From: Flavobacteriales bacterium
Lineage (GTDB): Bacteria > Bacteroidota > Bacteroidia > Flavobacteriales > CAJXXR01
Assembly: GCA_965243605.1 (NCBI GenBank)
Contig: CBDEVQ010000092.1
Span: 48,208 to 112,207 of the forward strand
Direction of reading: 5' to 3'
DNA: 64,000 nt
The position numbers were made by a program, and so were the translations under genes. Below, piece by piece: positions 6,009 through 37,035 of this stretch (positions are counted from its first letter, which is position 1; each line of letters begins with the position of its first letter). Below the pieces are notes generated by a model. It worked only from the letters and a program-made list of their open reading frames with translations, was not told where the DNA came from and did no database searches.

Positions 6009-6065
6009 GTTATTGCCTAAGGAATACGCTTAATAACGTTAGATATATTTCTAACAAATTAATTA

Positions 6066-6104
6066 TAGACCAGCTACCAATAGGGAGCTGGTCTATTTTG
6101 TTTT
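6066..6104 (+). terminator. Rho-independent terminator after the giant gene
   Basis: TAGACCAGCT-accaataggg-AGCTGGTCTA gives a 10-bp perfect stem, followed by TTTTGTTTT, 58 nt after the stop at 6008. Confidence 0.75.
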
Positions 6105-6407
6105 ACTTGGGTAGATGTTGCATATAATTTACGTTGTGTTTTGTATTAATTACTTAGTAGTTAAGTATGTGTGTTTATTACATCGATCTGTTTATTAAGC
6201 GTGTTAATCGAATAATAACAACCAATAGTCCAAAAATGTATAGATCATAGATGGCTAATAATATCTTTGAAACAGTGAGAATAATTAGCTAAATTATTCT
6301 TCTAAAATTTTATTAAGTAAATATTATAGCCAGAGTGCATTATTGCTTCTATGGCAGCTATTATACCTGTATTTCTATTTTAATTCAGTGCTTTAAGACG
6401 ATCTGAA

Positions 6408-6524
6408 TTAAGCGGCAATGTAAAATCCGGAGAAATAAATCTTTCAAACTTCCCAAGTGGACTGTATAGCATTCAATTTAAAGATGCCACTATGGTTAGA
6501 TCTATAAAATTTGTATTAAATTAA
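6408..6524 (+). pseudogene. Orphan 3' fragment of an array gene (last ~38 codons of the alpha-type CTD plus stop) at the left edge of the array
   Basis: It reads LSGNVKSGEINLSNFPSGLYSIQFKDATMVRSIKFVLN*. The canonical 17-nt spacer ttaacaattagagcgtt and the A1 ATG follow. No upstream coding part and no start codon are present. Confidence 0.85.
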
Positions 6525-6541
6525 TTAACAATTAGAGCGTT

Positions 6542-8461
6542 ATGAGAATACTAACCATATTAAGTTATTTATTTTATTTATGTATTAGTTTGAATGGGAA
6601 TAGCCAAACCATCACGGTTCAGAATTTAGACGATTCAGGAATAGGTTCTCTGCGTAATGCTATTTCTAATGCCAATTCAGGCGATACCATACGTTTTAAT
6701 CCCATGTTAATTGCTCAAGGGAGTGATACTTTGGTACTAGATACAGTAATAAATATTGATAAAGATTTGGTAATAAATGGACTTTATGATAGCGAGGATA
6801 CCTTGTTTTTGTCTTCTAAAACAAATAGAAGTATATTCTTTGTTGATTCTGTAGATAATATATTGCTTGATAGCCTTTGTTTGTTAGCAGATACAAGTGA
6901 TAATATTGACCCCTATATCACTTATTTTGTTTATTCAAATGTATTAGTTTCAAATTGTTTTTTTAAAGGGTACACCAAAATTATTTTACATACTTGGCAG
7001 TCAAATTTGACCATTGTTGGTTCGATGGTTTTGGGATTACATTCTCCACAATCATTTCCTAAAATAAGTTATGCAACGCAAGGTGATATTTTTAGAGAAT
7101 GTAATATAACGAATTCGGTGTTTAAGTTAGAAAATTCAAATAGCACAGGTTTCTATATAGAAACTGGAGGTAATAAGATAAATAACAACATACATATAGA
7201 AAATTCTTACTTTTCAAATTTCAAAACACTAATTTATGGTCTTAATACTGTAAATGTTGTAAAGAATACATTTAATAATTCTTTGATTAAGACAGGTGAA
7301 CCCAATAGAGGTTTTTATACCAGAAATATTGCATTAACTGTAAAAGCTTCAACCTTTACTATTACAGATAGTAACAGAGTACAAAATACAATTTTAAGCA
7401 TAGGAACGCCTTACGGACCTATTGAGCCAATTCCACTAGATACTATTAAGTTAAATTTTACAAATTGTACATTTAATGGAGGTCTTTATGAAGATACTCT
7501 TTATGGGAGCTTTACTGATAGTAATTATTTGGATTACTTCGGTCCAGACTTAGATGAGCTAAAAATAACAAGTTGTATTTTTAATGATATTAACGGATTT
7601 AACGAATTGCCTATAGACTCTTCAGGAGGATATAATCTATTTAGTTTTCCTCAAAATATTGGCTTAGATTCAACAGACCAAACCAATGTTCTGGTGTCTG
7701 ATATTAACTTGGGACCCTTACAAAACAATGGAGGGTATACACCTACACATCTACCAAACTACCAATCTTTAGCGTTTAATTCGGGTAATCCGAACGATAC
7801 AAGCTCAGCCCAAAACGGAGCCATCATACAACGCCGAGATATTGGGTCAGCAGAAATACAAGCTGTCCTAACCATAGACACAACAGAGCATTGCGGTACA
7901 TCCTATAATTGGCGAGCAGACACCCTTACCGAAACAGATATTCATTTTGATTTTGAAGAATCTACTACAGGAGGGCACGATAGTGTTTTTGCTTTAGATT
8001 TAACCTTAGATTACATGGATGCTCTAGCTATTAGCGATGGTGGAGCCTTACAAGCCAATATCACTGATGCAAGCTATCAATGGATAGATTGTTCAACCCA
8101 TTTACCATTGTTTGGCGAAACCAACCAAACCCTTACACCCAATATAGCGGGAACCTATGCCGTTGTTGTTTCCAATGGAATTTGTACCGATACTTCGGCC
8201 TGTGTATTTATCGATAATTTGAGTGTAGAAGAGCATAACCCAAACCTTCCTCTTATTAGAGTAACCAACCAAACCATATTCTTTAATCCAAGCAATTCTC
8301 TATTATCCCATTATATAATTTACAATAGTCAAGGACAATCCGTTGTAAGCGGCAACGTAAAATCTGGAGAAATAAACCTTTCAAACTTCCCAAGTGGACT
8401 GTATAGCATTCAATTTAAAGATGCCACTATGGTTAGATCTATAAAATTTGTATTAAATTAA
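6542..8461 (+). CDS. Array copy A1: T9SS-targeted right-handed beta-helix family protein (signal a, core class I, hybrid CTD)
   Basis: 639 aa. Signal peptide MRILTILSYLFYLCISLNGNSQ. N-cap TITVQNLDDSGIGSLRNAISNANSGDTIRFNP (CSLREA-like). C-cap LGPLQNNGGYTPTHL...QRRDIGSAEIQ (choice-of-anchor-Q-like). The first half of the CTD is unique (HNPNLPLIRVTNQTIFF...); the second half is alpha type. The core is unique apart from a tail shared with A6 (PLDT(I/L)KLNFTNCTFNGGLYEDTLYG). Confidence 0.9.
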   Translation: MRILTILSYLFYLCISLNGNSQTITVQNLDDSGIGSLRNAISNANSGDTIRFNPMLIAQGSDTLVLDTVINIDKDLVINGLYDSEDTLFLSSKTNRSIFFVDSVDNILLDSLCLLADTSDNIDPYITYFVYSNVLVSNCFFKGYTKIILHTWQSNLTIVGSMVLGLHSPQSFPKISYATQGDIFRECNITNSVFKLENSNSTGFYIETGGNKINNNIHIENSYFSNFKTLIYGLNTVNVVKNTFNNSLIKTGEPNRGFYTRNIALTVKASTFTITDSNRVQNTILSIGTPYGPIEPIPLDTIKLNFTNCTFNGGLYEDTLYGSFTDSNYLDYFGPDLDELKITSCIFNDINGFNELPIDSSGGYNLFSFPQNIGLDSTDQTNVLVSDINLGPLQNNGGYTPTHLPNYQSLAFNSGNPNDTSSAQNGAIIQRRDIGSAEIQAVLTIDTTEHCGTSYNWRADTLTETDIHFDFEESTTGGHDSVFALDLTLDYMDALAISDGGALQANITDASYQWIDCSTHLPLFGETNQTLTPNIAGTYAVVVSNGICTDTSACVFIDNLSVEEHNPNLPLIRVTNQTIFFNPSNSLLSHYIIYNSQGQSVVSGNVKSGEINLSNFPSGLYSIQFKDATMVRSIKFVLN

Positions 8462-8478
8462 TTAACAATTAGAGCGTT

Positions 8479-10371
8479 ATGAGAATACTAACCATATTAA
8501 GTTATTTATTTTGTTTATGTATTAGTTTGAATGGGAATAGCCAAACTATAACTGTTCAGAATTTAGACGATTCAGGGATTGGTTCTCTGCGTGATGCTAT
8601 TTCTAATGCCAATTCAGGCGATACCATACGTTTTAATCCAATGTTACTATCACAAGGGAGTGATACCTTGGTGTTAGATACAGTAATTAATATTGATAAA
8701 GATTTAGTGATAAAAGGGCTTTATGATGATGAGGATACGTTGTTTTTGTCTGTGTCAGACAATCAGTCATTCTTCCTTGTTGATACTGTTGAAAGTTTTA
8801 CGCTTGATAGTGTTGTTTTAATATCGTCAATAAATAATACTCCAAGTACATGGATTATAGTTTTTGAATCATTAATTAATATAGATAATTCTATTTTTAG
8901 AGGAGCTAAAAGTACTGTATTGATGTTATCAGAATCTCCATTTATAATACAAAATAGTTTTTTTTCTATAAACAATTTTCTAGTTTTTGGAGGAACACCC
9001 AATATTATTACTTGCGGATTTAATACAGATAAATTAAGGACAATAAGAATAGAATCTACTATATTTCAGGTTATTGGTGCTTCAAATGGACTTGATGTGA
9101 GATTTACAAGTAATCAGGATAGTAATAATGTAATAATTAGGAATTGTTATCTTAATAATTTTAGGAGTTTGTTATTTGGCCATTTTCGTGTAGAAATAAT
9201 AAATAGTACTTTTAATAACTCTCCTTTTGATATTGGTCACCCAATGATATCAGGGGGTATTCCTGAAAGAAATGCTTTTATTTTGGCTAACACTTCGACT
9301 TTTTCTTTAACTGATATTGGATATTTACAAAACCCTATCTCTTGTATAGGTTCACCAACAAACCCTTTTGATCCACCTCCTTCAGATATATTTGAATTAC
9401 AATTTAATAATTGCACTTTCAATGGAGGAACTTATGACAGCAATTCCTATGAAGATTACTTCGGTCCAGACTTAGATGAGCTAAAAATAACAAGTTGTAT
9501 TTTTAATGATATTAACGGATTTAACGAATTGCCTATAGACTCATCAGGAGGCTATAACTTATTTAGTTTTCCTCAAAGCATAGGTTTAGATTCAACAGAC
9601 CAAACCAATGTTCTGGTGTCTGATGTCAACTTAGGACCATTACAAAACAACGGAGGGTTTACACCAATACATCTACCAAACTACCAATCTTTAGCGTTTA
9701 ATTCGGGTAATCCGAACGATACAAGCTCTGCTCAAAATGGAGCCATTATACAACGCCGAGATATTGGGGCAGCAGAAATACAAGCTGTCCTAACCATAGA
9801 CACAACAGAGTATTGCGGTACATCCTATAATTGGCGAGCAGACACCCTTACTGAAACAGATATTCATTTTGATATTGAAGAGTCTACCAATGGTGGATAC
9901 GATAGTGTTTTTGCTTTAGATTTAACCTTAGATTACATGGATGCTCTAGCCATTAGCGATGGTGGAGCCTTACAAGCCAATATTTCTGATGCAACATACC
10001 AATGGATGGATTGTTCAACCCATTTACCATTGTTTGGCGAAACCAACCAAACCTTTACACCCAGTATAGCGGGAACCTATGCGGTTGTTGTTTCCAATGG
10101 AATTTGTACCGATACTTCGGCCTGTGTATTTATCGATAATTTGAGTGTAGAAGAGCAGGTGCAATCCTTTGTATTTGTAAAGAATCATGTTTTGTATTTT
10201 AACGGGTTAGAAAATGCAGAGTTTAACATCTATAATAGCCTTGGGCAGAATATTTTAAGCGGCAATGTAAAATCCGGAGAAATAGACCTTTCAAACTTCC
10301 CAAGTGGACTGTATAGCATTCAATTTAAAGATGCCACTATGGTTAGATCTATAAAATTTGTATTAAATTAA
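8479..10371 (+). CDS. Array copy A2 (signal a, core class II, CTD alpha)
   Basis: 630 aa with the same architecture. The core is homologous to B4 (both begin LSVSDNQSFFLVDTVESFTLDS). The last ~305 aa are identical to A3. Confidence 0.9.
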   Translation: MRILTILSYLFCLCISLNGNSQTITVQNLDDSGIGSLRDAISNANSGDTIRFNPMLLSQGSDTLVLDTVINIDKDLVIKGLYDDEDTLFLSVSDNQSFFLVDTVESFTLDSVVLISSINNTPSTWIIVFESLINIDNSIFRGAKSTVLMLSESPFIIQNSFFSINNFLVFGGTPNIITCGFNTDKLRTIRIESTIFQVIGASNGLDVRFTSNQDSNNVIIRNCYLNNFRSLLFGHFRVEIINSTFNNSPFDIGHPMISGGIPERNAFILANTSTFSLTDIGYLQNPISCIGSPTNPFDPPPSDIFELQFNNCTFNGGTYDSNSYEDYFGPDLDELKITSCIFNDINGFNELPIDSSGGYNLFSFPQSIGLDSTDQTNVLVSDVNLGPLQNNGGFTPIHLPNYQSLAFNSGNPNDTSSAQNGAIIQRRDIGAAEIQAVLTIDTTEYCGTSYNWRADTLTETDIHFDIEESTNGGYDSVFALDLTLDYMDALAISDGGALQANISDATYQWMDCSTHLPLFGETNQTFTPSIAGTYAVVVSNGICTDTSACVFIDNLSVEEQVQSFVFVKNHVLYFNGLENAEFNIYNSLGQNILSGNVKSGEIDLSNFPSGLYSIQFKDATMVRSIKFVLN

Positions 10372-16126: not shown

Positions 16127-18040
16127 ATGAGAATACTAACCATATTAAGTTATTTATTTTGTTTAGGTATTAGTTTTAATGGGAATAGCCAAACCATCAC
16201 GGTTCAGAATTTAGACGATTCTGGGGTTGGCTCTTTACGTGATGCTATTTCTAATGCCAATTCAGGCGATACCATCCGTTTTAATCCCATGTTAATTGCT
16301 CAAGGGAGTGATACTTTAGTATTAGATACAGTAATAAGTATTGACAAAGATTTAGTGATAAAAGGGATTTATGATAGCGAGGATACCTTGTTTTTGACTT
16401 GTATTAATAATCAAATGTTTTTTTTAATTGAAAGTATTGAGCTTTCAATGGATAGTATGATTTTTACATCTGCGTATTATAATTATTCAAATACATATTT
16501 TCTATATTTAAGAAACTCTGAAGTAAATATTTTAAATTCAAAATTCTTAGATTTTTCAGAAACGGTTCTATCTTCAGAACAATCGAATTTAACTATTAAT
16601 AATAGTTCATTTTTTTGTGACAGCTTATATTCACATTATCCTTTGGTATACCTAACTCAAGGTGATACGTTAAGAAAACTAAAAATTATAAAGTCAAAGT
16701 TTTTAATAAAGGAAAAGAATACAGTTGGTATAGTAGTTAGAACAGCTGGAAATAAGGAGAATAATAAGGTGATTATTCAAGATTCATATTTTGAAAATTT
16801 TGAAACATTAATATATGGTCATAACACCATAGATATTCAATATTCAACATTTAATAATTCACTAATTAAAACGGGAGAGCCTTATGTGGGGTTTGCATAT
16901 ATTAGAGATATTACATTAACTGTAAAATCTTCAACCTTTGCAATTACAGATTCTAATCAAGTTCAAAATACGATTTTATGTATTGGTACACCTTATGGAC
17001 CTATTGAGCCAGTTCCTTTAGATACTCTGAAGTTAAATTTTACAAATTGTACGTTTAATGGAGGTCTTTATGAAGATACTCTTTATGGGAACTTTACTGA
17101 TAGTAATTATTTGGATTATTTCGGCCCCGATTTAGATGAACTAAAAATAACAAGTTGTATTTTCAATGATATTAACGGATTTAACGAATTGCCTATTGAC
17201 TCTTCAGGTGGATATAACTTATTTAGTTTTCCTCAAAGCATAGGATTAGATTCAACTGACCAAGCTAATGTTCTGGTGTCTGATATTAATTTGGGGCCCT
17301 TACAAAACAATGGAGGGTATACACCTACACATCTACCAAACTACCAATCTTTAGCGTTTAATTCGGGTAATCCTAACGATACCATTTCTGCTCAAAATGG
17401 AGCCATTATACAACGTAGAGATATTGGATCAGCTGAAATACAAGCTATACTTACTGTAGATACTACTGAATATTGTGGCGAATTTTATGATTGGAGAGGG
17501 CAAATGTTAACCGAATCAGCTATCTATTCAGATATAGAAGTATCTACAACAGGATTAGATAGTGTTTTTGCCATAGATTTAACCTTAGAGTATTTAGATG
17601 CCCTAGCCATAAGTGATGGAGGCGAATTAACAGCCAATAGTTCTGATGCGACATACCAATGGATGGATTGTTCAACCTATTTACCATTGTTTGGCGAAAC
17701 CAACCAAACCCTTACACCCAGTATTGCGGGAACCTATGCGGTTGTTGTTTCCAACGGAATTTGTACCGATACTTCGGCCTGTGTATTTATCGATAATTTG
17801 AGTGTAGAAGAGCAAGAAGAATATTATGTTTTTATAAAAGATAATGTACTTCATCTTAATGGGATTAGTAGTATCAAAATAGATTATATTATTTATAACA
17901 GTTTAGGACAAAAGGTACTTCACTCAAATACCTCACAAGAAAAACAAGACCTCTCTTATTTAGAGTCAGGTGTCTATTATATTAGATTAATATCTGATAA
18001 AGTGAATGATAAAAAGTATAATAAATTTATTATTAAATAA
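16127..18040 (+). CDS. Array copy A6, last gene of block A (signal a, core class V, CTD gamma)
   Basis: 637 aa. The core segment TQGDTLRKLKIIKSKFLIKEKNTVGIVVRTAGNKENNKVIIQDSYFENFETLIYGHNT is shared with B6. The CTD ...DLSYLESGVYYIRLISDKVNDKKYNKFIIK differs from alpha and resembles the CTD of the 18529..23949 gene. Confidence 0.9.
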   Translation: MRILTILSYLFCLGISFNGNSQTITVQNLDDSGVGSLRDAISNANSGDTIRFNPMLIAQGSDTLVLDTVISIDKDLVIKGIYDSEDTLFLTCINNQMFFLIESIELSMDSMIFTSAYYNYSNTYFLYLRNSEVNILNSKFLDFSETVLSSEQSNLTINNSSFFCDSLYSHYPLVYLTQGDTLRKLKIIKSKFLIKEKNTVGIVVRTAGNKENNKVIIQDSYFENFETLIYGHNTIDIQYSTFNNSLIKTGEPYVGFAYIRDITLTVKSSTFAITDSNQVQNTILCIGTPYGPIEPVPLDTLKLNFTNCTFNGGLYEDTLYGNFTDSNYLDYFGPDLDELKITSCIFNDINGFNELPIDSSGGYNLFSFPQSIGLDSTDQANVLVSDINLGPLQNNGGYTPTHLPNYQSLAFNSGNPNDTISAQNGAIIQRRDIGSAEIQAILTVDTTEYCGEFYDWRGQMLTESAIYSDIEVSTTGLDSVFAIDLTLEYLDALAISDGGELTANSSDATYQWMDCSTYLPLFGETNQTLTPSIAGTYAVVVSNGICTDTSACVFIDNLSVEEQEEYYVFIKDNVLHLNGISSIKIDYIIYNSLGQKVLHSNTSQEKQDLSYLESGVYYIRLISDKVNDKKYNKFIIK

Positions 18041-18097
18041 TATGAAATAAAAAACTATGAAATTCTTTGACACAGATAGCAATTAAAACCAACAAGA

Positions 18098-18410
18098 GTG
18101 ATTCTCGATACATTTTTATTTCTCTGTCGTTCAATAAAACCACTCGAACAGACAGATTAAAAACAATAGTCGTTAAAATCACTCTAATGTTTGAGTTATA
18201 GTAGACATTCAGCGTGATTCTCGATACATTTTTATTTCTCTGTCGTTCAATAAAACCACTCGAACAGACAGATTAAAAACAATAGTCGTTAAAATCGCTC
18301 TAATGTTTGAGTTATAGTAGACATTCAGCGTGATTCTCGATACACTTTTATTTCTTTGTGGTTCAATAAAACTACTCGAATCGACAGGTAGTTGAAAACT
18401 AGACTTAGCC
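18098..18410. repeat. 116-bp direct tandem repeat: two near-identical units, a diverged partial third unit, and a degenerate partial unit just upstream
   Basis: The unit start gtgattctcgataca recurs at 18098, 18214 and 18330, giving a 116-bp period. Units 1 and 2 differ at one base that I saw (atcActc versus atcGctc). Each unit holds the hairpin CTGTCGTTC-aataaaaccactc-GAACaGACAG. Confidence 0.9.
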
Positions 18411-18528
18411 TGATTTATCCTACGTTCCAATTATTTTTCTGCTTTAAATCTTATTTATTAAATGTATTCAGTACGTAAATGGTGTGTTGCCATTTACGAT
18501 TATTATATCAATTTAAATTAATAACAAA

Positions 18529-21500
18529 ATGAAGATCAAAAAAGAACTCATTTTAATGCTATGTTTTGTAATGGGAAGTACCCACAGTATAGCACAAACC
18601 AGTACAACCTTATCCTACAATGGTAGTGATGAAGTGATTAAAAACCCTGAGCGCGGGTTAAGTTATAAAGCAGGGTATGTCGATTTATTTGTCGATGGGT
18701 ATTCTTATGATGGAGCTGTATCCTATCAATGGACTCATGAATTTCCTAACACAGCAAATACAACTCCACCAAGTTTTATTTCACGGTTTAGGAAAGATGC
18801 AGGAAATCACATACAAGAATTGCCAATTGGGTATCAATTTAAATCTACAGCACCTGATGGATTAATTACAGTGGATTCAGATTTAGATTTACCATTACAA
18901 GGGAATGATGAGTTACAAATTAGTTTTCCAAATCCTATGAATTCGAGTTATGATAATAGTTCTGATTTAGTGATAATTCATTATACAGATAATACAGCTA
19001 ACTCTAGAACAGTAAAATATAAAGCATTTCCAAGCGGAGTAGCAGGAAACTATAATGGGGGCTATGGGGATTTTGTTGCACCAGGTAATAATACTATATT
19101 TTCTAAAATAAACATTAGGAATATATCTGGTATTGGTGGACAAATTCAATCATTTTATGTTTTTCAAAATGATAATATTGCTGGTAATGCACCAATAGAA
19201 ATAGACATGAACGAACCGGTTATTTTAGAGTTAAGGTCGGATATCGAAGCATTTACGATAAACCACATAGACCGTTCAGGTGTTTTAGAAAATCGTATAG
19301 AATGTTCATCGCCACATATTGAACAAGCTGCTGACCAATTGAACAATTTTGAGGTTCGTACAGAGTTGTCATATAACCAAATACCTTTAGATATAAGTAC
19401 AGGAAGTTTAAGTACACCGTTTGGGAATCAGATAACGTATAACAACTCTAACCACAGCTTAAATATTACCGATGCTTTTTTTGATGCCCAAACCTATCAG
19501 CAAGCCAGTAATAACAATATTGAGTTAGACCAATGTTATATAGAAGAAAATGGTATCTCTTTAGTTGAACTTGAAGAGTATATTCATTTTTCAGAAGATA
19601 ATATTACGGCATCCTCGCCTCAATACCAATTAGAAACGGCAAGTGTTAATCGTACAAACAATGCGTTTAATCAAATTAAAAATCACGGATTAAAAGCCCA
19701 TCAGGTTACCAATTCAGATTTTAAGATGACGGCAAATAATCATATCTATAATGTGCCAGACGATGAACATTTCACGTATTTACAAAACATAATGGATGAA
19801 ACCAATACTGAAATCTATTCAGGTAATAATAGTCTTATCGCATTAAATACATTGGGGTGGATAAAAGACCAAGAAGATGCTAGTTTATATCGTCTTTCTC
19901 CAACATGGTTAAAAACATCAAAAGATAAGCATTACCTACATTCTGGTCAAGATGCATATTATGGTGAGTTTTTACCCAATGAAGAAAACACTCTACGTTC
20001 TAGCCACCAAAGGTCTTTATTTAGATACTCAGCAGCTGCATCTAACCCGAACTTTACAGGAAACGGATTTAACTCTAGTGGTATTGCAGCAGATGTAAAT
20101 ATTCAGCACTATCAGGAAACAGTCATGAAAAAAGTAAAAAACTATTTTCCTAATAAAAAAATGCTAACCGATATGGTTGTGGCATGGGAACATAAGTTTA
20201 CCTATCCACAAAACGGAGGAACCTATGACGATGCTGGAGAAGATGAGTTTGATGTAAACCCAAACCTTGGATATTACGATGATATGTTTGCCACAACCTA
20301 TGAGTATTTAGGAACTATTTGTGATGAACCACAATTTCATTCAGTTTCAACAGATTTTACATCTGATGGTAAAAAAGATTTATTCGTATTAGGAAAGTAT
20401 AGCGATAATTTTTGGATGCATGCTGATATGCCTTTATACTTTGACGATGCAACTTTTGGACAATCTTTTGGGGCAATGTCTAGCAACTGGACAAATAATG
20501 GACAGTTTGATTACGAAGCTCTTAAGGGAATGCTTACAGCATCGGATGAAGAGCAAAACCCATTTTTAGCAGCAAAAAAATTATTCCGTTTTAACTATAC
20601 CTCTTTTGATGTAACGTATAACAACTCAGAAACAATAGGGAAAAATATTTTTGAATTTGTAGAGCCAAACGGAAATGGAGCGATTGATAAATGGAAAAGC
20701 ACAGCAATAACACAGGCTGATGCTGATCAATACCAATTACCATATTCAACAGGATATTTTACACATGATAATAAATCGGTGTTCGATTATATTCGTGACC
20801 ATTTGGGGTATCGTTTAGAACTGCAGAACTTAGAAACAGAAATACAAGGAAATAATCTAACCGCAAAATTCCATATTCAAAATAAAGGATTTTCAGCACC
20901 TAAAAACCCAAGACAAATTTATGCGGTGCTTTTAGATGAGCAAGGACAACAAGTGCAACAACTACCTGTGAATATAGATGCTAATGAGTGGTTATCATGG
21001 ACAACCGATGCAAATTTAGATATTAAAAAAAATGATATAAACGGAACAAATTATACCGACTATACGTTAGAGGATGATTTTGACCCTATTAATTACAATA
21101 CCCATACAGTTCAAGCGACCTTTGATATGTCAGGTTTAACAACCTATGCTACATATTCTATAGCCTTATGGATGCCAGACCCCTCGGCAGATTTAAACAC
21201 TGCATCTAACCAAGTGGATTATGCTGTTAAATTAGCTAATAGACCAATTTCTATTGGTGCTCGTGGAGAAAATATTGTAGCGAGTTTTAAACGAGGTGTA
21301 AATCAAATGAATTTACCATCTAAATATATCTCTGCAAATACCTTAATAATCAATCAAAATGCTACATGGGCGTCTTTAATAGAACATAATAGAAATATTA
21401 CTATTCCTAATGGAAGAACACTTACCATTACCGGAACCCTTAAAATGCCGCAAGGCACAAAAATTCAAGTTCTAGAGGGAGGAAAACTAATTGTAAACGG

Positions 21501-23949
21501 AGGAACCATAACAAGTAATTGTGATGCGCCTTGGCTAGGGATAGATGTATTCGGTCATGAAGAGTTAAACCAAACTGCTGCCAGCGGACAAGGTGAAGTT
21601 GTACTCAAAAACAATGCCCGAATAGAATATGCTGTAGATGGTGTTGCCTTAATTGGGCATACTCAAAATGGAGACATTGCCTGGGGAACATCAGGAGGGA
21701 TTTTGTTAGCCGAAAACACAACCTTTTATAATTGTAGACGAGGTATAGAATTTATGGCATATACCAACTATAATACAACCTATACGCAAGAGCGAAGAAA
21801 TAAAGGCGTTATAAATAATTGTACGTTTCAATTTACCGATGCGTTTAATGACCTATATGGATACAATACCTATGGAGAACATTATATACCGGTAGGAATA
21901 AGCATGTGGGAAGTAGACCGTGTATTGGTAAAAGGATGTACATTTATTAATGAAATGTCAACCTTTAACACAAGCAATTATGTCCATAATAAATACGATG
22001 GTTATGGAATTATTAGCGTAGATGCTTCTCCATTTATACAACCTGTTTATCCACCTGGACCTATGCCTGGATCTGCTACTGATTGGAATAATTTTGAAGG
22101 ATTTGATATTGGAGTATATAAAGTTAATTTAAATGGTGGTACAAGCCCGATTAAAATTAAGGATAACGATTTTAGTGAAAATCGTGCAGGAATCTATATT
22201 GAAAATAGCCCTTTTGCAACGGTGGTGTTAAACGATATTAATGTGCCAAATTTAAACTTCGGATCAACAACCGAAGAAATAAATGCTGTAGGTTTGTATT
22301 TAACAGGAGCATCTAATTTTGAAGTGGAAGACAATACCTTTATCGGAAATGGCGCTTCATCTACCCACCATGATGGGGGATTGGTTATCGAAAACAGCTA
22401 TGCAACGGGCCCTCATAACGAAACCGTTTATAACAATGCATTTGATGATTTAGGATTTGGATTTTTAGCCTACGGCGAAAATGGAGATACCTATAACGAT
22501 AATGGCGTACCAACGTCTCGTGGATTAGAAATGGGATGTAATGATTTTGGACAAAATGATAACAATTATCAAGATTGGTATATCCATAATGGAGCATCTA
22601 TAAGCCCTGTACAAGGTTCAGGAAGTACACCAACAGGAAACCGTTTTTCAGATGACCCAATCACAACAGACAACCACGGACATATTTTTATTGGTGGTAC
22701 TTTTGAAATTACCGAGTATTTCCGTTTTGATCCCTATGAACATGACCCATCTGAATCTGATAATGCAAAAGTAGCCGTTACAAATACAGGGGCTTCATAC
22801 TCAGAAAGTCAAAGCTGTTCGTCTAACTTTGCATTAAGTGAGGATATTACCGAAGGAGATTTAAATAATCATTTTTCAGATCATGAACTTTTGAAATATA
22901 AACTATTTCAATTAAAAACGAGTTATAAAAACATTTTAAATGGAGGGGTTAAACCTGAAATTATGGATGTGTTACTGGATGCAAACAAAACCTCTCAAGA
23001 AGTAAGAGATGAACTTGTTAATGGGTCTCCCTATTTGGAAGATGAGGTATTAATTGCCGCCATTAAAAGAGAAATTCCACTAACCCAATGGCACTTAACC
23101 GAAATTTTGGTTTGGAATTCTCGATTAAGCAGGGCGGTTATGAGTGCTTTATATGAAGCTCAACCATTAACGCCATATCAATATAATTTGGTTGTAAATG
23201 CAGACAATGGTTCTCAACGATTATTGCTTGAAATGGATATTCACGAAAAACAAATGGAGTTAGCAAGATTAAAATCTGACCATGTGTTAAAAGCATGGAA
23301 TAATGAGGATATTAACTTCTATGATGAAGTGATTAAAGTCTATAACAATGAAGAAACCGAATTTGCTGTAGGGCAATGTATAGAGGCTGAATTGTCAAAT
23401 AAAAACTATACAGGAGCAACATCTCGATTAAATACCTTTATGGGGTCGAATTCAAATGCAGATTTTCAAACCTTTTATGATTTCAAGATTAACTTAAAAC
23501 AAAGTGGTCGTAATTGGTTTCAATTATCTGATAATGAATTAAGAACTTTAGATGATTTACAGGCAAGTAATAATTCGTTTATTGCTCCTAAAGTAGAAAA
23601 CATTAAACGTTTTATTAGTGGAGATAATCAAACCTTTACGCCATTACCAATAGACTTAACACAGCCACAAACTAAAAAAGCCTATGTTGGTAAACCATCA
23701 GATGAATCCTTTGAGAATATCCTTGAAGTGAAATATCTAAGTGGAGAACAAGCTCTAATGTTTATTAGTACAAAGCCTGGAGCGAGATTTACTATTGTAA
23801 ATGCACTTGGTCAGGTTGTAGAAACTGGAGAAATGGCAAATGCTGTTGAATACAAAGATGTATCTTACTTACAATCTGGAGTATATCATATCCGATTAAC
23901 CTCGGATGAAGTAAATAAAACACAACACGATAAATTTGTTGTTCGATAA
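18529..23949 (+). CDS. 1806-aa secreted protein between the two array blocks: glycoside-hydrolase-like N-terminal region (DUF4874/DUF4832-like), beta-helix region, T9SS CTD
   Basis: Signal peptide MKIKKELILMLCFVMGSTHSIAQ. NPERGL near the N-terminus, and later DHLGYRLELQNLETEIQGNNLTAKFHIQNKGFSAPKNPRQIYAVLLDE, which is DUF4832-like as I recall that family. PbH1-like coils follow (TLTITGTLKMPQGTKIQVLEGGKLIVNGGTITS...). The C-terminus is FTIVNALGQVVETGE...VSYLQSGVYHIRLTSDEVNKTQHDKFVVR. Confidence 0.8.
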   Translation: MKIKKELILMLCFVMGSTHSIAQTSTTLSYNGSDEVIKNPERGLSYKAGYVDLFVDGYSYDGAVSYQWTHEFPNTANTTPPSFISRFRKDAGNHIQELPIGYQFKSTAPDGLITVDSDLDLPLQGNDELQISFPNPMNSSYDNSSDLVIIHYTDNTANSRTVKYKAFPSGVAGNYNGGYGDFVAPGNNTIFSKINIRNISGIGGQIQSFYVFQNDNIAGNAPIEIDMNEPVILELRSDIEAFTINHIDRSGVLENRIECSSPHIEQAADQLNNFEVRTELSYNQIPLDISTGSLSTPFGNQITYNNSNHSLNITDAFFDAQTYQQASNNNIELDQCYIEENGISLVELEEYIHFSEDNITASSPQYQLETASVNRTNNAFNQIKNHGLKAHQVTNSDFKMTANNHIYNVPDDEHFTYLQNIMDETNTEIYSGNNSLIALNTLGWIKDQEDASLYRLSPTWLKTSKDKHYLHSGQDAYYGEFLPNEENTLRSSHQRSLFRYSAAASNPNFTGNGFNSSGIAADVNIQHYQETVMKKVKNYFPNKKMLTDMVVAWEHKFTYPQNGGTYDDAGEDEFDVNPNLGYYDDMFATTYEYLGTICDEPQFHSVSTDFTSDGKKDLFVLGKYSDNFWMHADMPLYFDDATFGQSFGAMSSNWTNNGQFDYEALKGMLTASDEEQNPFLAAKKLFRFNYTSFDVTYNNSETIGKNIFEFVEPNGNGAIDKWKSTAITQADADQYQLPYSTGYFTHDNKSVFDYIRDHLGYRLELQNLETEIQGNNLTAKFHIQNKGFSAPKNPRQIYAVLLDEQGQQVQQLPVNIDANEWLSWTTDANLDIKKNDINGTNYTDYTLEDDFDPINYNTHTVQATFDMSGLTTYATYSIALWMPDPSADLNTASNQVDYAVKLANRPISIGARGENIVASFKRGVNQMNLPSKYISANTLIINQNATWASLIEHNRNITIPNGRTLTITGTLKMPQGTKIQVLEGGKLIVNGGTITSNCDAPWLGIDVFGHEELNQTAASGQGEVVLKNNARIEYAVDGVALIGHTQNGDIAWGTSGGILLAENTTFYNCRRGIEFMAYTNYNTTYTQERRNKGVINNCTFQFTDAFNDLYGYNTYGEHYIPVGISMWEVDRVLVKGCTFINEMSTFNTSNYVHNKYDGYGIISVDASPFIQPVYPPGPMPGSATDWNNFEGFDIGVYKVNLNGGTSPIKIKDNDFSENRAGIYIENSPFATVVLNDINVPNLNFGSTTEEINAVGLYLTGASNFEVEDNTFIGNGASSTHHDGGLVIENSYATGPHNETVYNNAFDDLGFGFLAYGENGDTYNDNGVPTSRGLEMGCNDFGQNDNNYQDWYIHNGASISPVQGSGSTPTGNRFSDDPITTDNHGHIFIGGTFEITEYFRFDPYEHDPSESDNAKVAVTNTGASYSESQSCSSNFALSEDITEGDLNNHFSDHELLKYKLFQLKTSYKNILNGGVKPEIMDVLLDANKTSQEVRDELVNGSPYLEDEVLIAAIKREIPLTQWHLTEILVWNSRLSRAVMSALYEAQPLTPYQYNLVVNADNGSQRLLLEMDIHEKQMELARLKSDHVLKAWNNEDINFYDEVIKVYNNEETEFAVGQCIEAELSNKNYTGATSRLNTFMGSNSNADFQTFYDFKINLKQSGRNWFQLSDNELRTLDDLQASNNSFIAPKVENIKRFISGDNQTFTPLPIDLTQPQTKKAYVGKPSDESFENILEVKYLSGEQALMFISTKPGARFTIVNALGQVVETGEMANAVEYKDVSYLQSGVYHIRLTSDEVNKTQHDKFVVR

Positions 23950-23963
23950 AATGTGATTAACTT

Positions 23964-24010
23964 GTAAGCCCAAGGTGTTTAAAACCTTGGGCTTACCTAT
24001 TTATTTATAA
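23964..24010 (+). terminator. Rho-independent terminator after the 1806-aa gene
   Basis: GTAAGCCCAAGGT-gtttaaa-ACCTTGGGCTTAC gives a 13-bp perfect stem, followed by ctatttatttat. Confidence 0.75.
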
Positions 24011-24034
24011 AAATTATATTAAAAAGTAAACGCT

Positions 24035-25948
24035 ATGAAATACCTTAATGTGTATAATTTTATATATTGTTTGTTTTTTACGCTCACACTAACAGGGCAA
24101 ACTATTACGGTTCAGAATTTAGATGATTCAGGAATCGGTTCTCTGCGTGATGCTATTGATATAGCAAACTCAGGCGACACTATACGTTTTAATCCAATGT
24201 TACTATCGCAAGGGAGTGATACTTTAGTTCTAGATACTGTTATTAATATTGATAAGGATTTAGTAATAAAAGGGCTTTATGATGATGAGGATACTTTGTT
24301 TTTGTCTGCTATTGATGACCAGATGATGTTTTCTATAGATAGTGTTGAAAATATAGTTATGGATAGTTTGACTTTTGATATTGGCTCAATAAATACTTTT
24401 ACCAATTACGATTTCTTTTGGGTGCGAAATTCAAATATACAAATGTATAATTCAATGTTTTTAGGGTATAGAGATGAGGTTTTAACTTTTTGGCAATCAT
24501 CTTTAGAGATATTAAATTGTAAATTTACTAGTGGAAATAGTTTATTTCCGAGTTCTGTTATTATATTTTTAACAAATGGAGATGTGTCAAGACAGTTTAG
24601 AGTTGTTAATTCTGAGTTTAGATTTAATAATCCTCTTACTTCTGCAGTTATCATTAAAACAGGTGGCAATAAAAATAATAACCATATTTATTTTGAAAAT
24701 AATTATTTCTCTAATATAGGTACTTTAGTTTATGGTCATAATATGATTGATATTTTTAATAGCACCTATGAAAATGCTCATATACAAACAGGAGAGCCTT
24801 CTGTAGGATTTGCTTACATTAGAGACATTACATTAAATATAGAATCTTCAACTTTTACAATTAATGATGTTAATCAAGTACAAAACACCATTTTATGCAT
24901 AGGAACTCCTTATGGACCTATTGAGCCTGTTCCTCTAGATGTTCTTGAGTTAAATTTCACAAATTGTACGTTTAATGGAGGGATATATGTAGATACCGTT
25001 TATAATAACTTTTATGATAGTAATTATTTGGATTATTTCGGTCCAGATTTAGATGAGTTAAAAATAACAAGTTGTATTTTTAATGATATTAACGGATTTA
25101 ATGAATTACCTATAGACACTTCAGGTGGATATAATCTATTTAGTTTCCCTCAAAATATAGGTTTAGATTCTACAGACCAAGCTGATATTTTGGTTTCAGA
25201 TATTAATTTAGGATCATTACAAAACAACGGAGGGTCTACACCTACGCATTTACCAAGTTTTCAATCTTTAGCCTTTAACTCTGGTAATCCAAACGATACA
25301 AGCTCTGCTCAAAATGGGGATATTGTTCAACGTAGAGATATAGGAGCTGCTGAAATACAAGCTGTATTAACAGTTGATACTACAGAATACTGTGGAGAAA
25401 CTTATCAATGGAGAGAAGAAATACTGACGGAATCTAATATTCATTTTGACGTGCAAGAATCAACTACAGGAGGATATGATAGTGTTTTTGTTCTGGACTT
25501 AACTTTAGATTACATTGATGCTATTGCCATTAGTGATGGAGGGGAATTAAAAGCAAATATTTCTGATGCAACGTATCAGTGGATAGACTGCTCAACCAAT
25601 CAACCTTTATTCGGAGAAACGAATCAGGTTTTAACACCAAGTACAGAGGGAATCTATGCTGTTATTGTTTCAAGTTCTATTTGTACAGACACATCAAGTT
25701 GTGTGTATATTAATAATATAGGGTTAGAAGAGCAAGAGAAACACTTTGTATTTGTAAAAGATAAAATACTCTATTTAAATAATGTTAATAGCTATACCGA
25801 ATATAGTGTTTATAATAACTTAGGGCAAATCGTGTTTAAATTCAATACAGTAAAAAAACAACAGGATATAACTCATTTAAATTCAGGTGTGTATTTTATT
25901 GAGTTTAAAGATGAGAATATTCAACCAGTGAAATTTATTTTGGATTAA
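24035..25948 (+). CDS. Array copy B1, first gene of block B (signal b, core class IV, CTD beta)
   Basis: 637 aa. The signal MKYLNVYNFIYCLFFTLTLTGQ is unique to this copy. The core is essentially identical to B3. The CTD is ...YSVYNNLGQIVFKFNTVKKQQDITHLNSGVYFIEFKDENIQPVKFILD. Confidence 0.9.
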   Translation: MKYLNVYNFIYCLFFTLTLTGQTITVQNLDDSGIGSLRDAIDIANSGDTIRFNPMLLSQGSDTLVLDTVINIDKDLVIKGLYDDEDTLFLSAIDDQMMFSIDSVENIVMDSLTFDIGSINTFTNYDFFWVRNSNIQMYNSMFLGYRDEVLTFWQSSLEILNCKFTSGNSLFPSSVIIFLTNGDVSRQFRVVNSEFRFNNPLTSAVIIKTGGNKNNNHIYFENNYFSNIGTLVYGHNMIDIFNSTYENAHIQTGEPSVGFAYIRDITLNIESSTFTINDVNQVQNTILCIGTPYGPIEPVPLDVLELNFTNCTFNGGIYVDTVYNNFYDSNYLDYFGPDLDELKITSCIFNDINGFNELPIDTSGGYNLFSFPQNIGLDSTDQADILVSDINLGSLQNNGGSTPTHLPSFQSLAFNSGNPNDTSSAQNGDIVQRRDIGAAEIQAVLTVDTTEYCGETYQWREEILTESNIHFDVQESTTGGYDSVFVLDLTLDYIDAIAISDGGELKANISDATYQWIDCSTNQPLFGETNQVLTPSTEGIYAVIVSSSICTDTSSCVYINNIGLEEQEKHFVFVKDKILYLNNVNSYTEYSVYNNLGQIVFKFNTVKKQQDITHLNSGVYFIEFKDENIQPVKFILD

Positions 25949-25988
25949 CAACAACTATTCATTTTTAAATTATATAAACCTAAACCGT

Positions 25989-27872
25989 ATGACAAGGGTT
26001 ATTAAATCTATTAGTTTTATATGTTGTTTGTTTCTTACGCTCACACTAACAGGACAAACCATAACCGTTCAGAATTTAGACGATTCAGGAATAGGTTCTC
26101 TGCGTAATGCTATTTCTAATGCCAATTCAGGCGATACCATACGTTTTAATCCCATGTTAATTGCTCAAGGGAGTGATACTTTGGTACTAGATACAGTAAT
26201 AAATATTGATAAAGATTTAGTGATTAAAGGTATTTACGATAATCAAGATACTTTATTCATGTCGATAAAGAATGACAAGCTATTATTTGCTGTAGATTCT
26301 GTAAACGAAATAGTCTTTGATAGTTTAGTATTAATTTCCGATTCTAATTCAGTAATATACCCTTGGGGAACAAGTGCAATAGCTTTGAGTTATGTTAATT
26401 GTCAAATAAATAATTCATTATTTCTTGAGTTTACAAATAATCATATTTATTCGTGGGAATCCAATTTAAAAGTTAATAATTGTAATTTTTCTCATTATCA
26501 CCCTTATTCTAGTTTAATTTTTTTTGATACCTCAGGGGACTCAATTCAGAACTTGGAATTATCGAATGTAAATGTTAAGAGTTATACTAATCTAAGTTTT
26601 GGATTTGCTATGAGAACAGAAACATCAACTCAACTAGAAAAAATTAATATATTCTTTAAAAATTCTTATTTAAAGAATACAAAATCTTATTTTAATGGAA
26701 ATATAAACATTGATATTCTCAATAGTACTTTTGAAAATTCAATAATGGAATTAGGAGCTGAATATACTTCATCAGAAGCAACAGATTCAAAAATTATAGC
26801 AGAGATACAACAATCTACATTTACGGGAGATGTTAATGGAAATACTATTTTATGTTTAGAGCCTCAAACAACAACACCTCTTTTGATTGATTTTAAATTA
26901 AGATTGAATAATTGTACATTCAATGGAGGGAGTTATGATACAGAATCTTCCATTGATTATTTTGGAGAAAGTATAGATTCATTAAGTATAACAAGTTGCA
27001 TATTTAATGATATTAACGGATTTAACGAATTACCTATAGATTCATCAGGAGGATATAATCTATTTAGCTTTCCTCAAAGTATAGGCTTAGATTCTACAGA
27101 CCAAACCAATGTTTTGGTTTCAGATATTAATTTAGAACCACTACAAAACAACGGAGGATTTACACCTACGCATGTACCAAGTTATCAATCTTTAGCTTTT
27201 AACTCCGGTAATCCAAACGATACAAGTTTTGCTCAAAATGGAGCTATTATTCAACGTAGAGATATTGGAGCTGCTGAAATACAAGCTACTCTTACCATAG
27301 ACACTGTAGAGTATTGTGGAGAAGACTACGATTGGAGAAATGAAACACTTACGGAATCTAATATACACTTTGATGTTCAGGAATCTACCACAGGAGGATA
27401 TGATAGTGTTTTTGCTTTAGATTTAACCTTAGATTACATGGATGCTCTAGCCATTAGTGATGGGGGAGCCTTACAGGCCAATATTTCTGATGCAACATAC
27501 CAATGGATGGATTGTTTAACCCATTTACCATTGTTTGGCGAAACCAACCAAACCCTTACACCCAGTATAGCGGGAACCTATGCCGTTGTTGTTTCTAACG
27601 GAATTTGTACCGATACTTCGGCCTGTGTATTTATCGATAATTTGAGTGTGGAAGAGCAGGTGCAATCATTTGTATTTGTAAAGAATAATGTTTTGTATTT
27701 TAACGGGTTAGAAAATGCAGAGTTTAACATCTATAATAGCCTTGGGCAGAATGTTTTAAGCGGCAATGTAAAATTCGGAGAAATAAACCTTTCAAACTTC
27801 CCAAATGGACTGTATAGCATTCAATTTAAAAATGCCACTATGGTTAGATCTATAAAATTTGTATTAAATTAA
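25989..27872 (+). CDS. Array copy B2 (signal c, core class VI, unique and most divergent, CTD alpha)
   Basis: 627 aa. Signal MTRVIKSISFICCLFLTLTLTGQ, shared with B5. The core has no close partner in the window. DYFGESIDSLSITSCIFNDINGF is shared only with B6. Confidence 0.9.
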   Translation: MTRVIKSISFICCLFLTLTLTGQTITVQNLDDSGIGSLRNAISNANSGDTIRFNPMLIAQGSDTLVLDTVINIDKDLVIKGIYDNQDTLFMSIKNDKLLFAVDSVNEIVFDSLVLISDSNSVIYPWGTSAIALSYVNCQINNSLFLEFTNNHIYSWESNLKVNNCNFSHYHPYSSLIFFDTSGDSIQNLELSNVNVKSYTNLSFGFAMRTETSTQLEKINIFFKNSYLKNTKSYFNGNINIDILNSTFENSIMELGAEYTSSEATDSKIIAEIQQSTFTGDVNGNTILCLEPQTTTPLLIDFKLRLNNCTFNGGSYDTESSIDYFGESIDSLSITSCIFNDINGFNELPIDSSGGYNLFSFPQSIGLDSTDQTNVLVSDINLEPLQNNGGFTPTHVPSYQSLAFNSGNPNDTSFAQNGAIIQRRDIGAAEIQATLTIDTVEYCGEDYDWRNETLTESNIHFDVQESTTGGYDSVFALDLTLDYMDALAISDGGALQANISDATYQWMDCLTHLPLFGETNQTLTPSIAGTYAVVVSNGICTDTSACVFIDNLSVEEQVQSFVFVKNNVLYFNGLENAEFNIYNSLGQNVLSGNVKFGEINLSNFPNGLYSIQFKNATMVRSIKFVLN

Positions 27873-27885
27873 TAATTAAAACGTT

Positions 27886-29799
27886 ATGAGAATACTAACC
27901 ATATTAAGTTATTTATTTTGTTTATGTATTAGTTTTAATGGGAATAGCCAAACCATCACGGTTCAGAATTTAGACGATTCTGGGGTTGGCTCTTTACGTG
28001 ATGCTATTTCTAATGCCAATTCAGGCGATACTATACGTTTTAATCCAATGTTACTATCGCAAGGGAGTGATACTTTAGTTCTAGATACTGTTATTAATAT
28101 TGATAAGGATTTAGTAATAAAAGGGCTTTATGATGATGAGGATACTTTGTTTTTGTCTGCTATTGATGACCAGATGATGTTTTCTATAGATAGTGTTGAA
28201 AATATAGTTATGGATAGTTTGACTTTTGATATTGGCTCAATAAATACTTTTACCAATTACGATTTCTTTTGGGTGCGAAATTCAAATATACAAATGTATA
28301 ATTCAATGTTTTTAGGGTATAGAGATGAGGTTTTAACTTTTTGGCAATCATCTTTAGAGATATTAAATTGTAAATTTACTAGTGGAAATAGTTTATTTCC
28401 GAGTTCTGTTATTATATTTTTAACAAATGGAGATGTGTCAAGACAGTTTAGAGTTGTTAATTCTGAGTTTAGATTTAATAATCCTCTTACTTCTGCAGTT
28501 ATCATTAAAACAGGTGGCAATAAAAATAATAACCATATTTATTTTGAAAATAATTATTTCTCTAATATAGGTACTTTAGTTTATGGTCATAATATGATTG
28601 ATATTTTTAATAGCACCTATGAAAATGCTCATATACAAACAGGAGAGCCTTCTGTAGGATTTGCTTACATTAGAGACATTACATTAAATATAGAATCTTC
28701 AACTTTTACAATTAATGATGTTAATCAAGTACAAAACACCATTTTATGCATAGGAACGCCTTATGGACCTATTGAGCCTGTTCCTCTAGATGTTCTTGAG
28801 TTAAATTTCACAAATTGTACGTTTAATGGAGGGATATATGTAGATACCGTTTATAATAACTTTTATGATAGTAATTATTTGGATTATTTCGGTCCAGATT
28901 TAGATGAGTTAAAAATAACAAGTTGTATTTTTAATGATATTAACGGATTTAATGAATTACCTATAGACACTTCAGGTGGATATAATCTATTTAGCTTTCC
29001 TCAAAGTATAGGCTTAGATTCTACAGACCTAACCAATGTTTTGGTTTCAGATATTAATTTAGAACCACTACAAAACAACGGAGGATTTACACCTACGCAT
29101 GTACCAAGTTATCAATCTTTAGCTTTTAACTCCGGTAATCCAAACGATACAAGTTTTGCTCAAAATGGAGCTATTATTCAACGTAGAGATATTGGAGCTG
29201 CTGAAATACAAGCTACTCTTACCATAGACACTGTAGAGTATTGTGGAGAAGACTACGATTGGAGAAATGAAACACTTACGGAATCTAATATACACTTTGA
29301 TGTTCAGGAATCTACCACAGGAGGATATGATAGTGTTTTTGTTCTGGATTTAACTTTAGATTACATTGATGCTATAGCCATTAGCGATGGTGGAGCCTTA
29401 CAAGCCAATATTTCTGATGCAACATACCAATGGATGGATTGTTCAACCCATTTACCATTGTTTGGCGAAACCAACCAAACCTTTACACCCAGTATAGCGG
29501 GAACCTATGCGGTTGTTGTTTCCAATGGAATTTGTACCGATACTTCGGCCTGTGTATTTATCGATAATTTGAGTGTAGAAGAGCAGGTGCAATCCTTTGT
29601 ATTTGTAAAGAATCATGTTTTGTATTTTAACGGGTTAGAAAATGCAGAGTTTAACATCTATAATAGCCTTGGGCAGAATATTTTAAGCGGCAATGTAAAA
29701 TCCGGAGAAATAGACCTTTCAAACTTCCCAAGTGGACTGTATAGCATTCAATTTAAAGATGCCACTATGGTTAGATCTATAAAATTTGTATTAAATTAA
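27886..29799 (+). CDS. Array copy B3 (signal a, core class IV identical to B1, CTD alpha); a five-piece mosaic
   Basis: 637 aa. Going 5' to 3', it matches A6, then B1, then B2, then B4, then A2/A3 (see findings). Confidence 0.9.
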   Translation: MRILTILSYLFCLCISFNGNSQTITVQNLDDSGVGSLRDAISNANSGDTIRFNPMLLSQGSDTLVLDTVINIDKDLVIKGLYDDEDTLFLSAIDDQMMFSIDSVENIVMDSLTFDIGSINTFTNYDFFWVRNSNIQMYNSMFLGYRDEVLTFWQSSLEILNCKFTSGNSLFPSSVIIFLTNGDVSRQFRVVNSEFRFNNPLTSAVIIKTGGNKNNNHIYFENNYFSNIGTLVYGHNMIDIFNSTYENAHIQTGEPSVGFAYIRDITLNIESSTFTINDVNQVQNTILCIGTPYGPIEPVPLDVLELNFTNCTFNGGIYVDTVYNNFYDSNYLDYFGPDLDELKITSCIFNDINGFNELPIDTSGGYNLFSFPQSIGLDSTDLTNVLVSDINLEPLQNNGGFTPTHVPSYQSLAFNSGNPNDTSFAQNGAIIQRRDIGAAEIQATLTIDTVEYCGEDYDWRNETLTESNIHFDVQESTTGGYDSVFVLDLTLDYIDAIAISDGGALQANISDATYQWMDCSTHLPLFGETNQTFTPSIAGTYAVVVSNGICTDTSACVFIDNLSVEEQVQSFVFVKNHVLYFNGLENAEFNIYNSLGQNILSGNVKSGEIDLSNFPSGLYSIQFKDATMVRSIKFVLN

Positions 29800-29816
29800 T
29801 TAACAATTAGAGCGTT

Positions 29817-31712: not shown

Positions 31713-31752
31713 CAACAACTATTCATTTTTAAATTATATAAACCTAAACCGT

Positions 31753-33657: not shown

Positions 33658-33674
33658 TTAACAATTAGAGCGTT

Positions 33675-35642: not shown

Positions 35643-35654
35643 TAAAATTGATTA

Positions 35655-35662
35655 TATATTTG
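35655..35662 (+). promoter_or_regulatory. Candidate Bacteroidota -7 promoter box (TAnnTTTG) for the Rrf2 gene
   Basis: TATATTTG lies 18 nt upstream of the ATG at 35681. It matches the TAnnTTTG consensus known for Bacteroidota primary-sigma promoters. Confidence 0.3.
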
Positions 35663-35680
35663 TCAACAAATTTAAACACT

Positions 35681-36109: not shown

Positions 36110-36130
36110 CTTTTTTTTTGCCTAAATTCC

Positions 36131-36155
36131 ATAAAGGATAAAAAGATCCTTTTAT
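36131..36155. promoter_or_regulatory. Candidate Rrf2/NsrR operator upstream of ric (alternatively a weak terminator hairpin of the regulator gene)
   Basis: ATAAAGGAT-aaaaag-ATCCTTTTAT is a palindrome lying 22 nt after the regulator stop and ~100 nt before the ric ATG. Confidence 0.4.
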
Positions 36156-36256
36156 ATTGTTTGAGAGATATCAGGATTAAAAGAAAGAGAGAATAACCAA
36201 AAAAACAAAACATAGATAGGCCTTGGGCTTAAGAATAACTTTTTAAACACAGAACC

Positions 36257-36970: not shown

Positions 36971-37035
36971 GTAACACCATGGTCGTGTAAACCGTACACC
37001 ACCATCCGTATCAAAATTAAAACTAAACCTTACAC

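Follow-up and report, generated by a model that had tools for sequence, protein, structure and literature searches.

What is a 116-bp tandem repeat doing in the gap between two genes for secreted proteins? The stretch of DNA that we analysed, 64 kb from a Flavobacteriales bacterium (hereafter the window), raises this question in a 488-bp spacer at positions 18041-18528, which lies between two T9SS-cargo genes. The first-pass annotation of the window had left three answers side by side: the repeat could hold reiterated regulator-binding sites, it could be a repeated small RNA or attenuator, or it could be a recombination scar. We examined the architecture of the array, the distribution of its unit, the related loci and the folding and divergence of the individual copies, and then weighed these answers together with two others, a mobile element and an assembly artefact.

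The array lies within a cluster of T9SS cargo genes

The spacer separates the last paralog of a gene block (block A) from a giant gene, all on the + strand. The upstream neighbor (16127-18040, +) is the sixth of six genes for ~635-aa T9SS cargo proteins with choice_anch_Q and T9SS type A sorting domains, and its DNA is 76-88% identical to that of the other eleven paralogs. The giant gene (18529-23949, +) encodes a protein of 1806 aa with a signal peptide, a DUF4832 domain (Pfam, 6e-24) and a T9SS C-terminal sorting domain, the latter seen as matches to Por_Secre_tail and TIGR04183. The cluster as a whole runs from a gene for a 1961-aa PKD/CUB protein through the six paralogs of block A, the spacer and the giant gene to the six paralogs of block B.

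Block B is followed by genes for an Rrf2 regulator, ScdA and a quinol-type nitric oxide reductase. These genes (35648-39252; Rrf2-family regulator, ScdA for iron-sulfur cluster repair, and NorB) form a nitric-oxide stress module, the order of which is kept in two related loci, L006 and L007. Cellulophaga species encode a nitric oxide reductase 84% identical to this one, and the identity is 80-83% for other marine Flavobacteriaceae, which places the source among the uncultured members of this family.

Block A is itself preceded by a 533-bp spacer, which at 6384-6521 contains a remnant of a paralog's C-terminal sorting domain with no gene ahead of it. Its 46 codons are 78-83% identical to the ends of eight paralogs, and it is a pseudogene fragment from array rearrangement.

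The spacer contains two near-identical 116-bp units and a partial third

Tandem Repeats Finder reported an array at 18098-18387 with a period of 116, 2.5 copies, 95% matches, no indels and a score of 531; all other arrays that it reported in the 64-kb window had periods of 14 or less. The full extent of the array is 18095-18399, which accommodates two complete 116-bp units and ~0.65 of another. Unit 1 (18095-18210, +) and unit 2 (18211-18326, +) were each placed by repeat finding, nhmmer and direct count, and by direct count they match at 114 of 116 positions (98%). The partial unit 3 (18327-18399, +) corresponds to unit positions 1 to ~70. Its end was set by nhmmer, with repeat finding ending at 18387, and it is 89% identical to unit 1 over 61 nt. 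The remainder of a would-be third unit (18388-18442) did not resemble the unit's second half to a significant degree. Tandem Repeats Finder, direct count and nhmmer therefore agree with the first-pass description of two near-identical 116-bp units and a partial third.

A further, degenerate partial unit had been proposed at 18070-18097, immediately upstream of the array, and this proposal was not sustained. The best local alignment of the segment scored 21, compared with 15.9 +/- 2.7 for shuffled sequences, 5.9% of which scored equally well, and nhmmer left the segment unreported even at E<=10. The segment is also out of register: it would align with the middle of the unit, whereas the register of the array demands the end of a unit at this place. 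The spacer opens with a non-repeated, AT-rich leader (18041-18094, +) that begins where the coding sequence of the last block-A paralog stops. Compared with the same leader in the related loci L003 and L006, it differs by indels of 11 nt and 14 nt, located beside short ATGAA(A)TAA direct repeats, and Tandem Repeats Finder marked a 10-nt repeat at 18031-18050.

The open reading frames of the spacer have 20-73 codons only, with GTG or TTG starts. A blastx search of the spacer against the proteins of the cluster returned nothing below E=2.7, which ruled out a coding remnant. One small frame per unit (GTG start, MILDTFLFLCRSIKPLEQTD, 20 codons) was considered and ruled out as a gene, as a stop codon shortens it in L003. 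A template/variable pair of a diversity-generating retroelement was likewise rejected: both differences between units 1 and 2 fall on adenines of unit 1, yet there are only two of them, the repeat is non-coding, and a reverse transcriptase is absent from the subset of window ORFs that was scanned.

No second site for the unit was found in the sequences searched

A widespread genomic repeat with no positional link to its neighbors, part of what the first-pass annotation had named as a refutation, was not what the searches returned; they were negative in the window, in the related loci and in all collections searched. Within the window, a pattern search allowing 3 mismatches and a self-BLAST found no further copies of the unit, and an nhmmer profile run over the window and five related loci (L001-L005) yielded no additional copy. 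By exact pattern, there were zero matches for two independent unit segments in 185,579 species-representative genomes, zero for one unit segment and one promoter-proximal block segment in the JGI metagenomes, and zero for one unit segment in IMG/VR. Plasmid and phage collections were searched by blastn without a match, and no described element of this kind was found in the literature. The relatives of the locus discussed below were found by the protein route only, and not by DNA pattern scans.

Related loci carry one unit fewer

The giant protein has very few relatives among 5.8 billion proteins. Its homologues in L001 (86% amino acid identity), L002 (84%) and L004/L005 (54%) belong to loci in which similarity to the window starts only within the coding region, with upstream DNA and neighboring genes that are unrelated. 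Members of the giant-gene family thus do not generally have the array. In L001, a long perfect hairpin, AAATCACTTTAGAC-N6-GTCTAAAGTGATTT, lies at 3815-3860, after an FtsX-like gene and upstream of the giant-gene homologue. It has the words AATCAC and GTGATT in common with the window's unit; BLAST found no alignable similarity, and the hairpin is probably an ordinary terminator.

The window's order of paralog, spacer and DUF4832 giant gene was recovered in two loci, L003 from a Logan assembly and L006 from an ENA metagenome, the second of which runs on into the Rrf2-ScdA-NorB genes of the window. Each has one full unit followed by a partial unit (~1.65 copies), as read from short-read metagenome assemblies, which are able to collapse near-identical tandem units. 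Compared with either, the window has exactly 116 bp more, or one unit, in addition to a few small indels in the AT-rich leader. The ancestral number would therefore be ~1.65 copies, with one unit gained in the lineage of the window, in a sample of three lineages of which two, L003 and L006, are 97% identical to each other.

The copies themselves point to a recent gain. The full unit of L006 matches unit 1, and likewise unit 2, at 109/116 positions, and at each of the two positions where units 1 and 2 differ, one copy has the ancestral base and the other a derived one. Units 1 and 2 are thus closer to one another than to the L006 unit, so the last duplication would postdate the split of the lineages. 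Unit 3 is older than units 1 and 2 and orthologous to the partial unit of L003 and L006.

The same comparison gives a view of the surrounding genes. Between window positions 16127-35588 and L006 positions 197-9872, the Rrf2, ScdA and NorB proteins are 99% identical and the giant protein only 88%. The four-fold degenerate sites of the giant gene are 66% identical to those of L006, and the flanking paralogs are ~71% identical (four-fold sites ~50%). The paralog arrays number 6+6 genes in the window versus at least 1+1 in L006. On these alignments, the T9SS cargo cluster is a hotspot of divergence and copy-number change. Within the giant gene, positions 18950-19250 have 37-57% nucleotide identity to L006, compared with 88-93% in the flanking parts of the gene, and this is the least conserved region against L003 too; the ~300-bp segment looks like a hypervariable or replaced cassette in the giant protein. 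The giant gene has an A-run right behind its codon 4 (18538-18543), with 6 A in the window and in L006 and 7 A in L003 (~644-650). The extra A shifts the frame in L003, where the gene is called from a later methionine; it reflects an error in sequencing or assembly, or else a homopolymer frameshift.

The hairpins are best formed in the youngest copies

The inner hairpin of the unit, CTGTCGTTC-N13-GAACAGACAG, was located by pattern search at 18124-18155 in unit 1 and 18240-18271 in unit 2 (no strand assigned). It occurs exactly twice, and none of 100 shuffles gave a match. The corresponding part of unit 3 is degraded (TTGTGGTTC...GAATCGACAG), so the first-pass statement that each unit carries the hairpin is exact for units 1 and 2 and fails for the third copy. 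An outer inverted repeat, AGAGTGATT / AATCACTCT (18095-18103 / 18177-18185, no strand assigned), encloses the inner hairpin. It pairs at 9/9 positions in unit 1, and in unit 2 with one mismatch and one wobble. The perfect 9-bp form in unit 1 arose via a derived C-to-A change; the orthologous units share just the 6-bp core GTGATT/AATCAC, with L003 and L006 reading CGTGATT...AATCACACG. The GTGATT words previously noted in both orientations are real.

A similar history is suggested for the inner stem. Because every other copy carries a G.G mismatch where the young units of the window have C, and because both full-unit orthologues and unit 3 of the window carry a G.U wobble (T for C), the perfect inner stem is a derived feature of units 1 and 2. 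Seven substitutions separate the window units from the L006 unit, and two of them improve the pairing in the long hairpin (G.G to C-G and G.U to G-C), which could be a hint of selection for the inner stem.

Folding energies were compared with those of shuffled sequences. Unit 1 (z of -3.8) and unit 2 (-2.1) were more stable than their shuffles, while unit 3 of the window (0.06) and the two units of L003 (-0.66 and -1.2) were not. The spacer as a whole folded no better than shuffles on both strands (z of -1.7 and -1.4). Unit 3 of the window and the full unit of L003 fold into a different 6-bp hairpin, GTGGTT/AACCAC. Covariation and fold in homologous loci had been suggested as a check on the repeat, and its outcome was negative: the orthologous units fold no better than shuffles, and there is no covariation signal, with one double-sided change in 18 pairs, a count equalled or exceeded in 191/500 shuffles of a comparison that has low power with its five close copies. 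A search with Rfam 15 over 17000-19500 at E<=10 gave best scores of 14-19 bits against thresholds of 35-52, all with E>1, and a tRNA/tmRNA scan found none. A T-run after the unit hairpin is absent on either strand.

The most conserved part of the spacer lies outside the repeat

We compared the divergence of the units with that of their surroundings. Orthologous full units are 94% identical (109/116), and the partial unit of the window is 90% identical to those of L003 and L006 (53/59). Between the window and L006, four-fold degenerate sites are 85% identical in Rrf2, 88% in ScdA and 92% in NorB, and four other spacers are 92-98% identical. The units thus appear to evolve at about the neutral rate, without excess constraint and if anything below the conservation of other spacers, a comparison that rests on few substitutions in three lineages and is compatible with weak constraint. 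A reading of the spacer as strongly conserved (~90% versus 65-67% at the four-fold sites of the giant gene) was dropped once the Rrf2, ScdA and NorB baseline of 85-92% was taken into account. The outliers in a sliding-window profile are the giant gene and the paralogs, and not the spacer.

Alignment with L006 and L003 identified a non-repeated block at 18425-18499 (+) as the best conserved part of the spacer. The block is identical at 75/75 positions between the window and L006, and across the three lineages it is invariant save for the last base of a palindrome in L003; a 3-nt indel at ~18447 was reported as just upstream of the invariant block. The palindrome is a perfect 9-bp inverted repeat, CGTAAATGG-N7-CCATTTACG, at 18474-18498 (no strand assigned), ending 30 nt before the ATG at 18529, just as the first-pass annotation had described it. 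It is unchanged in L006 and differs by one base in L003. In a terminator consensus scan the palindrome passes with a weak tail, ATTATTATAT, and this one site compares with 0.4 expected by chance.

The conservation of the block suggests that the giant gene likely has its promoter or operator at 18425-18499. The signals controlling this gene would most likely lie in the invariant, non-repeated 75-100 bp upstream of the ATG, palindrome included. The palindrome could be an operator overlapping the promoter, or a terminator of the upstream operon, and in either role it appears to be a better candidate control site than the repeat units.

Promoters of Bacteroidota have a consensus different from that of sigma-70, with TAnnTTTG as the -7 box recognized by sigma-A. 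Exact matches to TAnnTTTG number 0 on either strand of 18041-18528, and the nearest approach within the unit, AATGTTTG, comes without TTG at -33. Sigma-70-like matches within the units were set aside, given the different consensus in Bacteroidota and a count only ~2x the shuffle mean.

A locus-specific tandem duplication as the probable origin of the array

Taken together, these comparisons argue that the array is probably a young, locus-specific minisatellite, that is, a tandem duplication of the VNTR type in non-coding DNA that separates two T9SS-cargo genes. The ancestor would have had a spacer with one full 116-bp unit and a ~70-nt partial copy. In the lineage of the window, unequal crossover or replication slippage between these two direct repeats would then have added one unit, and the internal inverted repeats may favor the stalling and misalignment involved. 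The region is prone to tandem duplication and slippage in other respects, as twelve paralogs compared with at least 1+1 in L006 and several small spacer indels attest. The units themselves would most likely be passengers, drifting about neutrally and with hairpins that differ between copies. The only plausible effect of an extra unit would be to place upstream DNA 116 bp (~11 helical turns) farther from the core, or to lengthen an untranslated transcript. Of the three answers offered at the outset, the recombination scar is the one that the comparisons favor, in the form of a recent duplication marked by a one-unit difference, 114/116 identity and neutral divergence. A small RNA or attenuator fares poorly, since Rfam and covariation were negative, a T-run and a -7 box are missing and only the young copies fold, and computation gave the regulator-site answer no positive support.

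The other readings can be held against the same evidence. That the units form a reiterated cis-regulatory array, for example of GTGATT/AATCAC half-sites, whose copy number tunes or phase-varies the giant T9SS cargo gene, is in our view unlikely, even though the array immediately precedes the gene for a large secreted protein in a hypervariable cluster, varies in copy number among close relatives, has a period that would keep helical phasing (116 bp is ~11 turns, by arithmetic only) and retains the GTGATT/AATCAC core in the orthologous full units. The units diverge about neutrally and are less conserved than four other spacers; the half-sites are separated by 31 or 75 nt, a spacing not typical of dimeric operators; GTGATT is altered in the partial units, to GTAATT in L003 and GTTATT in L006; the more distant giant-gene homologues do not have the array; and the spacer has no canonical Bacteroidota -7 box. 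A bolder version, in which the 116-bp modules, with their period of ~11 turns and a stem-loop reinforced by two substitutions in the lineage of the window, act as a copy-number switch and units gained or lost by unequal crossover alter expression of the T9SS gene or read-through from the paralogs, strikes us as improbable. We give similarly little credence to a structured RNA, either a tandem small RNA or an attenuator or stabilizer located in the 3' UTR that follows block A or in the giant gene's 5' UTR, comparable to REP/BIME elements. Such an RNA would account for the nested stem-loops that units 1 and 2 form beyond shuffles (z of -3.8 and -2.1) and for the two lineage-specific substitutions that strengthen the inner stem, and read-through may well extend into the spacer since the upstream gene has no obvious terminator. 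Against it, no Rfam family matches, the fold of the spacer (z of -1.7/-1.4) and the covariation are at the level of shuffles, the z-scores of the other units (-0.66, -1.2 and 0.06) are not significant, no T-run follows the unit hairpin, and no Bacteroidota promoter motif or terminator bounds the unit.

Two further readings concern the origin of the array rather than its role. The copy-number difference would be an assembly artefact if the relatives had been collapsed or the window over-expanded, and typical reads, like the largest k-mer of L006 (k127 in the contig name), do indeed exceed the 116 bp of the unit, with both L003 and L006 being metagenome assemblies. We regard this as very unlikely: two independent assemblies from different projects both give 1.65 copies, and units 1 and 2 of the window are distinguished by two substitutions and by different left flanks. 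Even if the artefact were real, the array would stay a tandem duplication and the other conclusions would hold. In its size and, for unit 1, its terminal inverted repeat, the unit is reminiscent of MITEs, which would make it a MITE- or REP-like element of ~91 bp, bounded by AGAGTGATT/AATCACTCT, that was inserted and then duplicated. There is scarcely any room for this reading given that no second site was found in the window, the related loci or the collections searched, that unit 1 alone has all 9 bp of the inverted repeat paired, with 6 bp common to the orthologues, that no target-site duplication flanks the element, and that the period of 116 does not match the 91-bp inverted-repeat segment.

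A tandem duplication of this kind has counterparts among well-studied repeats. MIRU-VNTR loci of Mycobacterium tuberculosis are used for MLVA typing; MIRUs occupy ~40 dispersed loci per genome, some with small ORFs. Variation of tandem-repeat copy number in this species is the subject of one study (PMC12817950). The array shares with them a head-to-tail arrangement of non-coding repeats of tens to ~100 bp between same-strand genes, whole-unit copy changes between close relatives, and units that are nearly identical within a genome. MIRUs are a dispersed family, whereas the unit of the window is known from one locus, in 1.65-2.65 copies. The REP/BIME and ERIC elements of Enterobacteria have hundreds of dispersed copies, often in alternating orientation, and their stem-loops can affect mRNA stability. 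The likeness to these extends to short imperfect palindromes in an intergenic spacer; unlike them, the unit of the window is a direct tandem repeat at a single locus, and its stems are not kept in the orthologous copies. Phase-variable promoter repeats, such as the nadA tetranucleotide tract of Neisseria, consist of 1-10 nt units in many copies with high slippage, and alter promoter spacing or regulator binding. Like the nadA tract, the array lies upstream of a gene for a surface or secreted protein and its copy number is strain-variable; it differs in having a 116-nt unit in 1.65-2.65 copies.

We conclude that the feature is real, unusual for the window and ordinary in kind: a copy-variable intergenic tandem duplication. 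In practice it can be used for strain typing, and it cautions against assembly errors in the region. If the number of units changed expression of the giant gene, the array would provide marine Flavobacteriaceae with a further means of varying their surface, and the copy-number switch, improbable as we hold it to be, would if true represent a large-unit form of phase variation in this family. The more interesting biology adjoins the array, in the hypervariable T9SS cargo cluster, where the giant gene and its twelve paralogous neighbors diverge far faster than the surrounding housekeeping genes.
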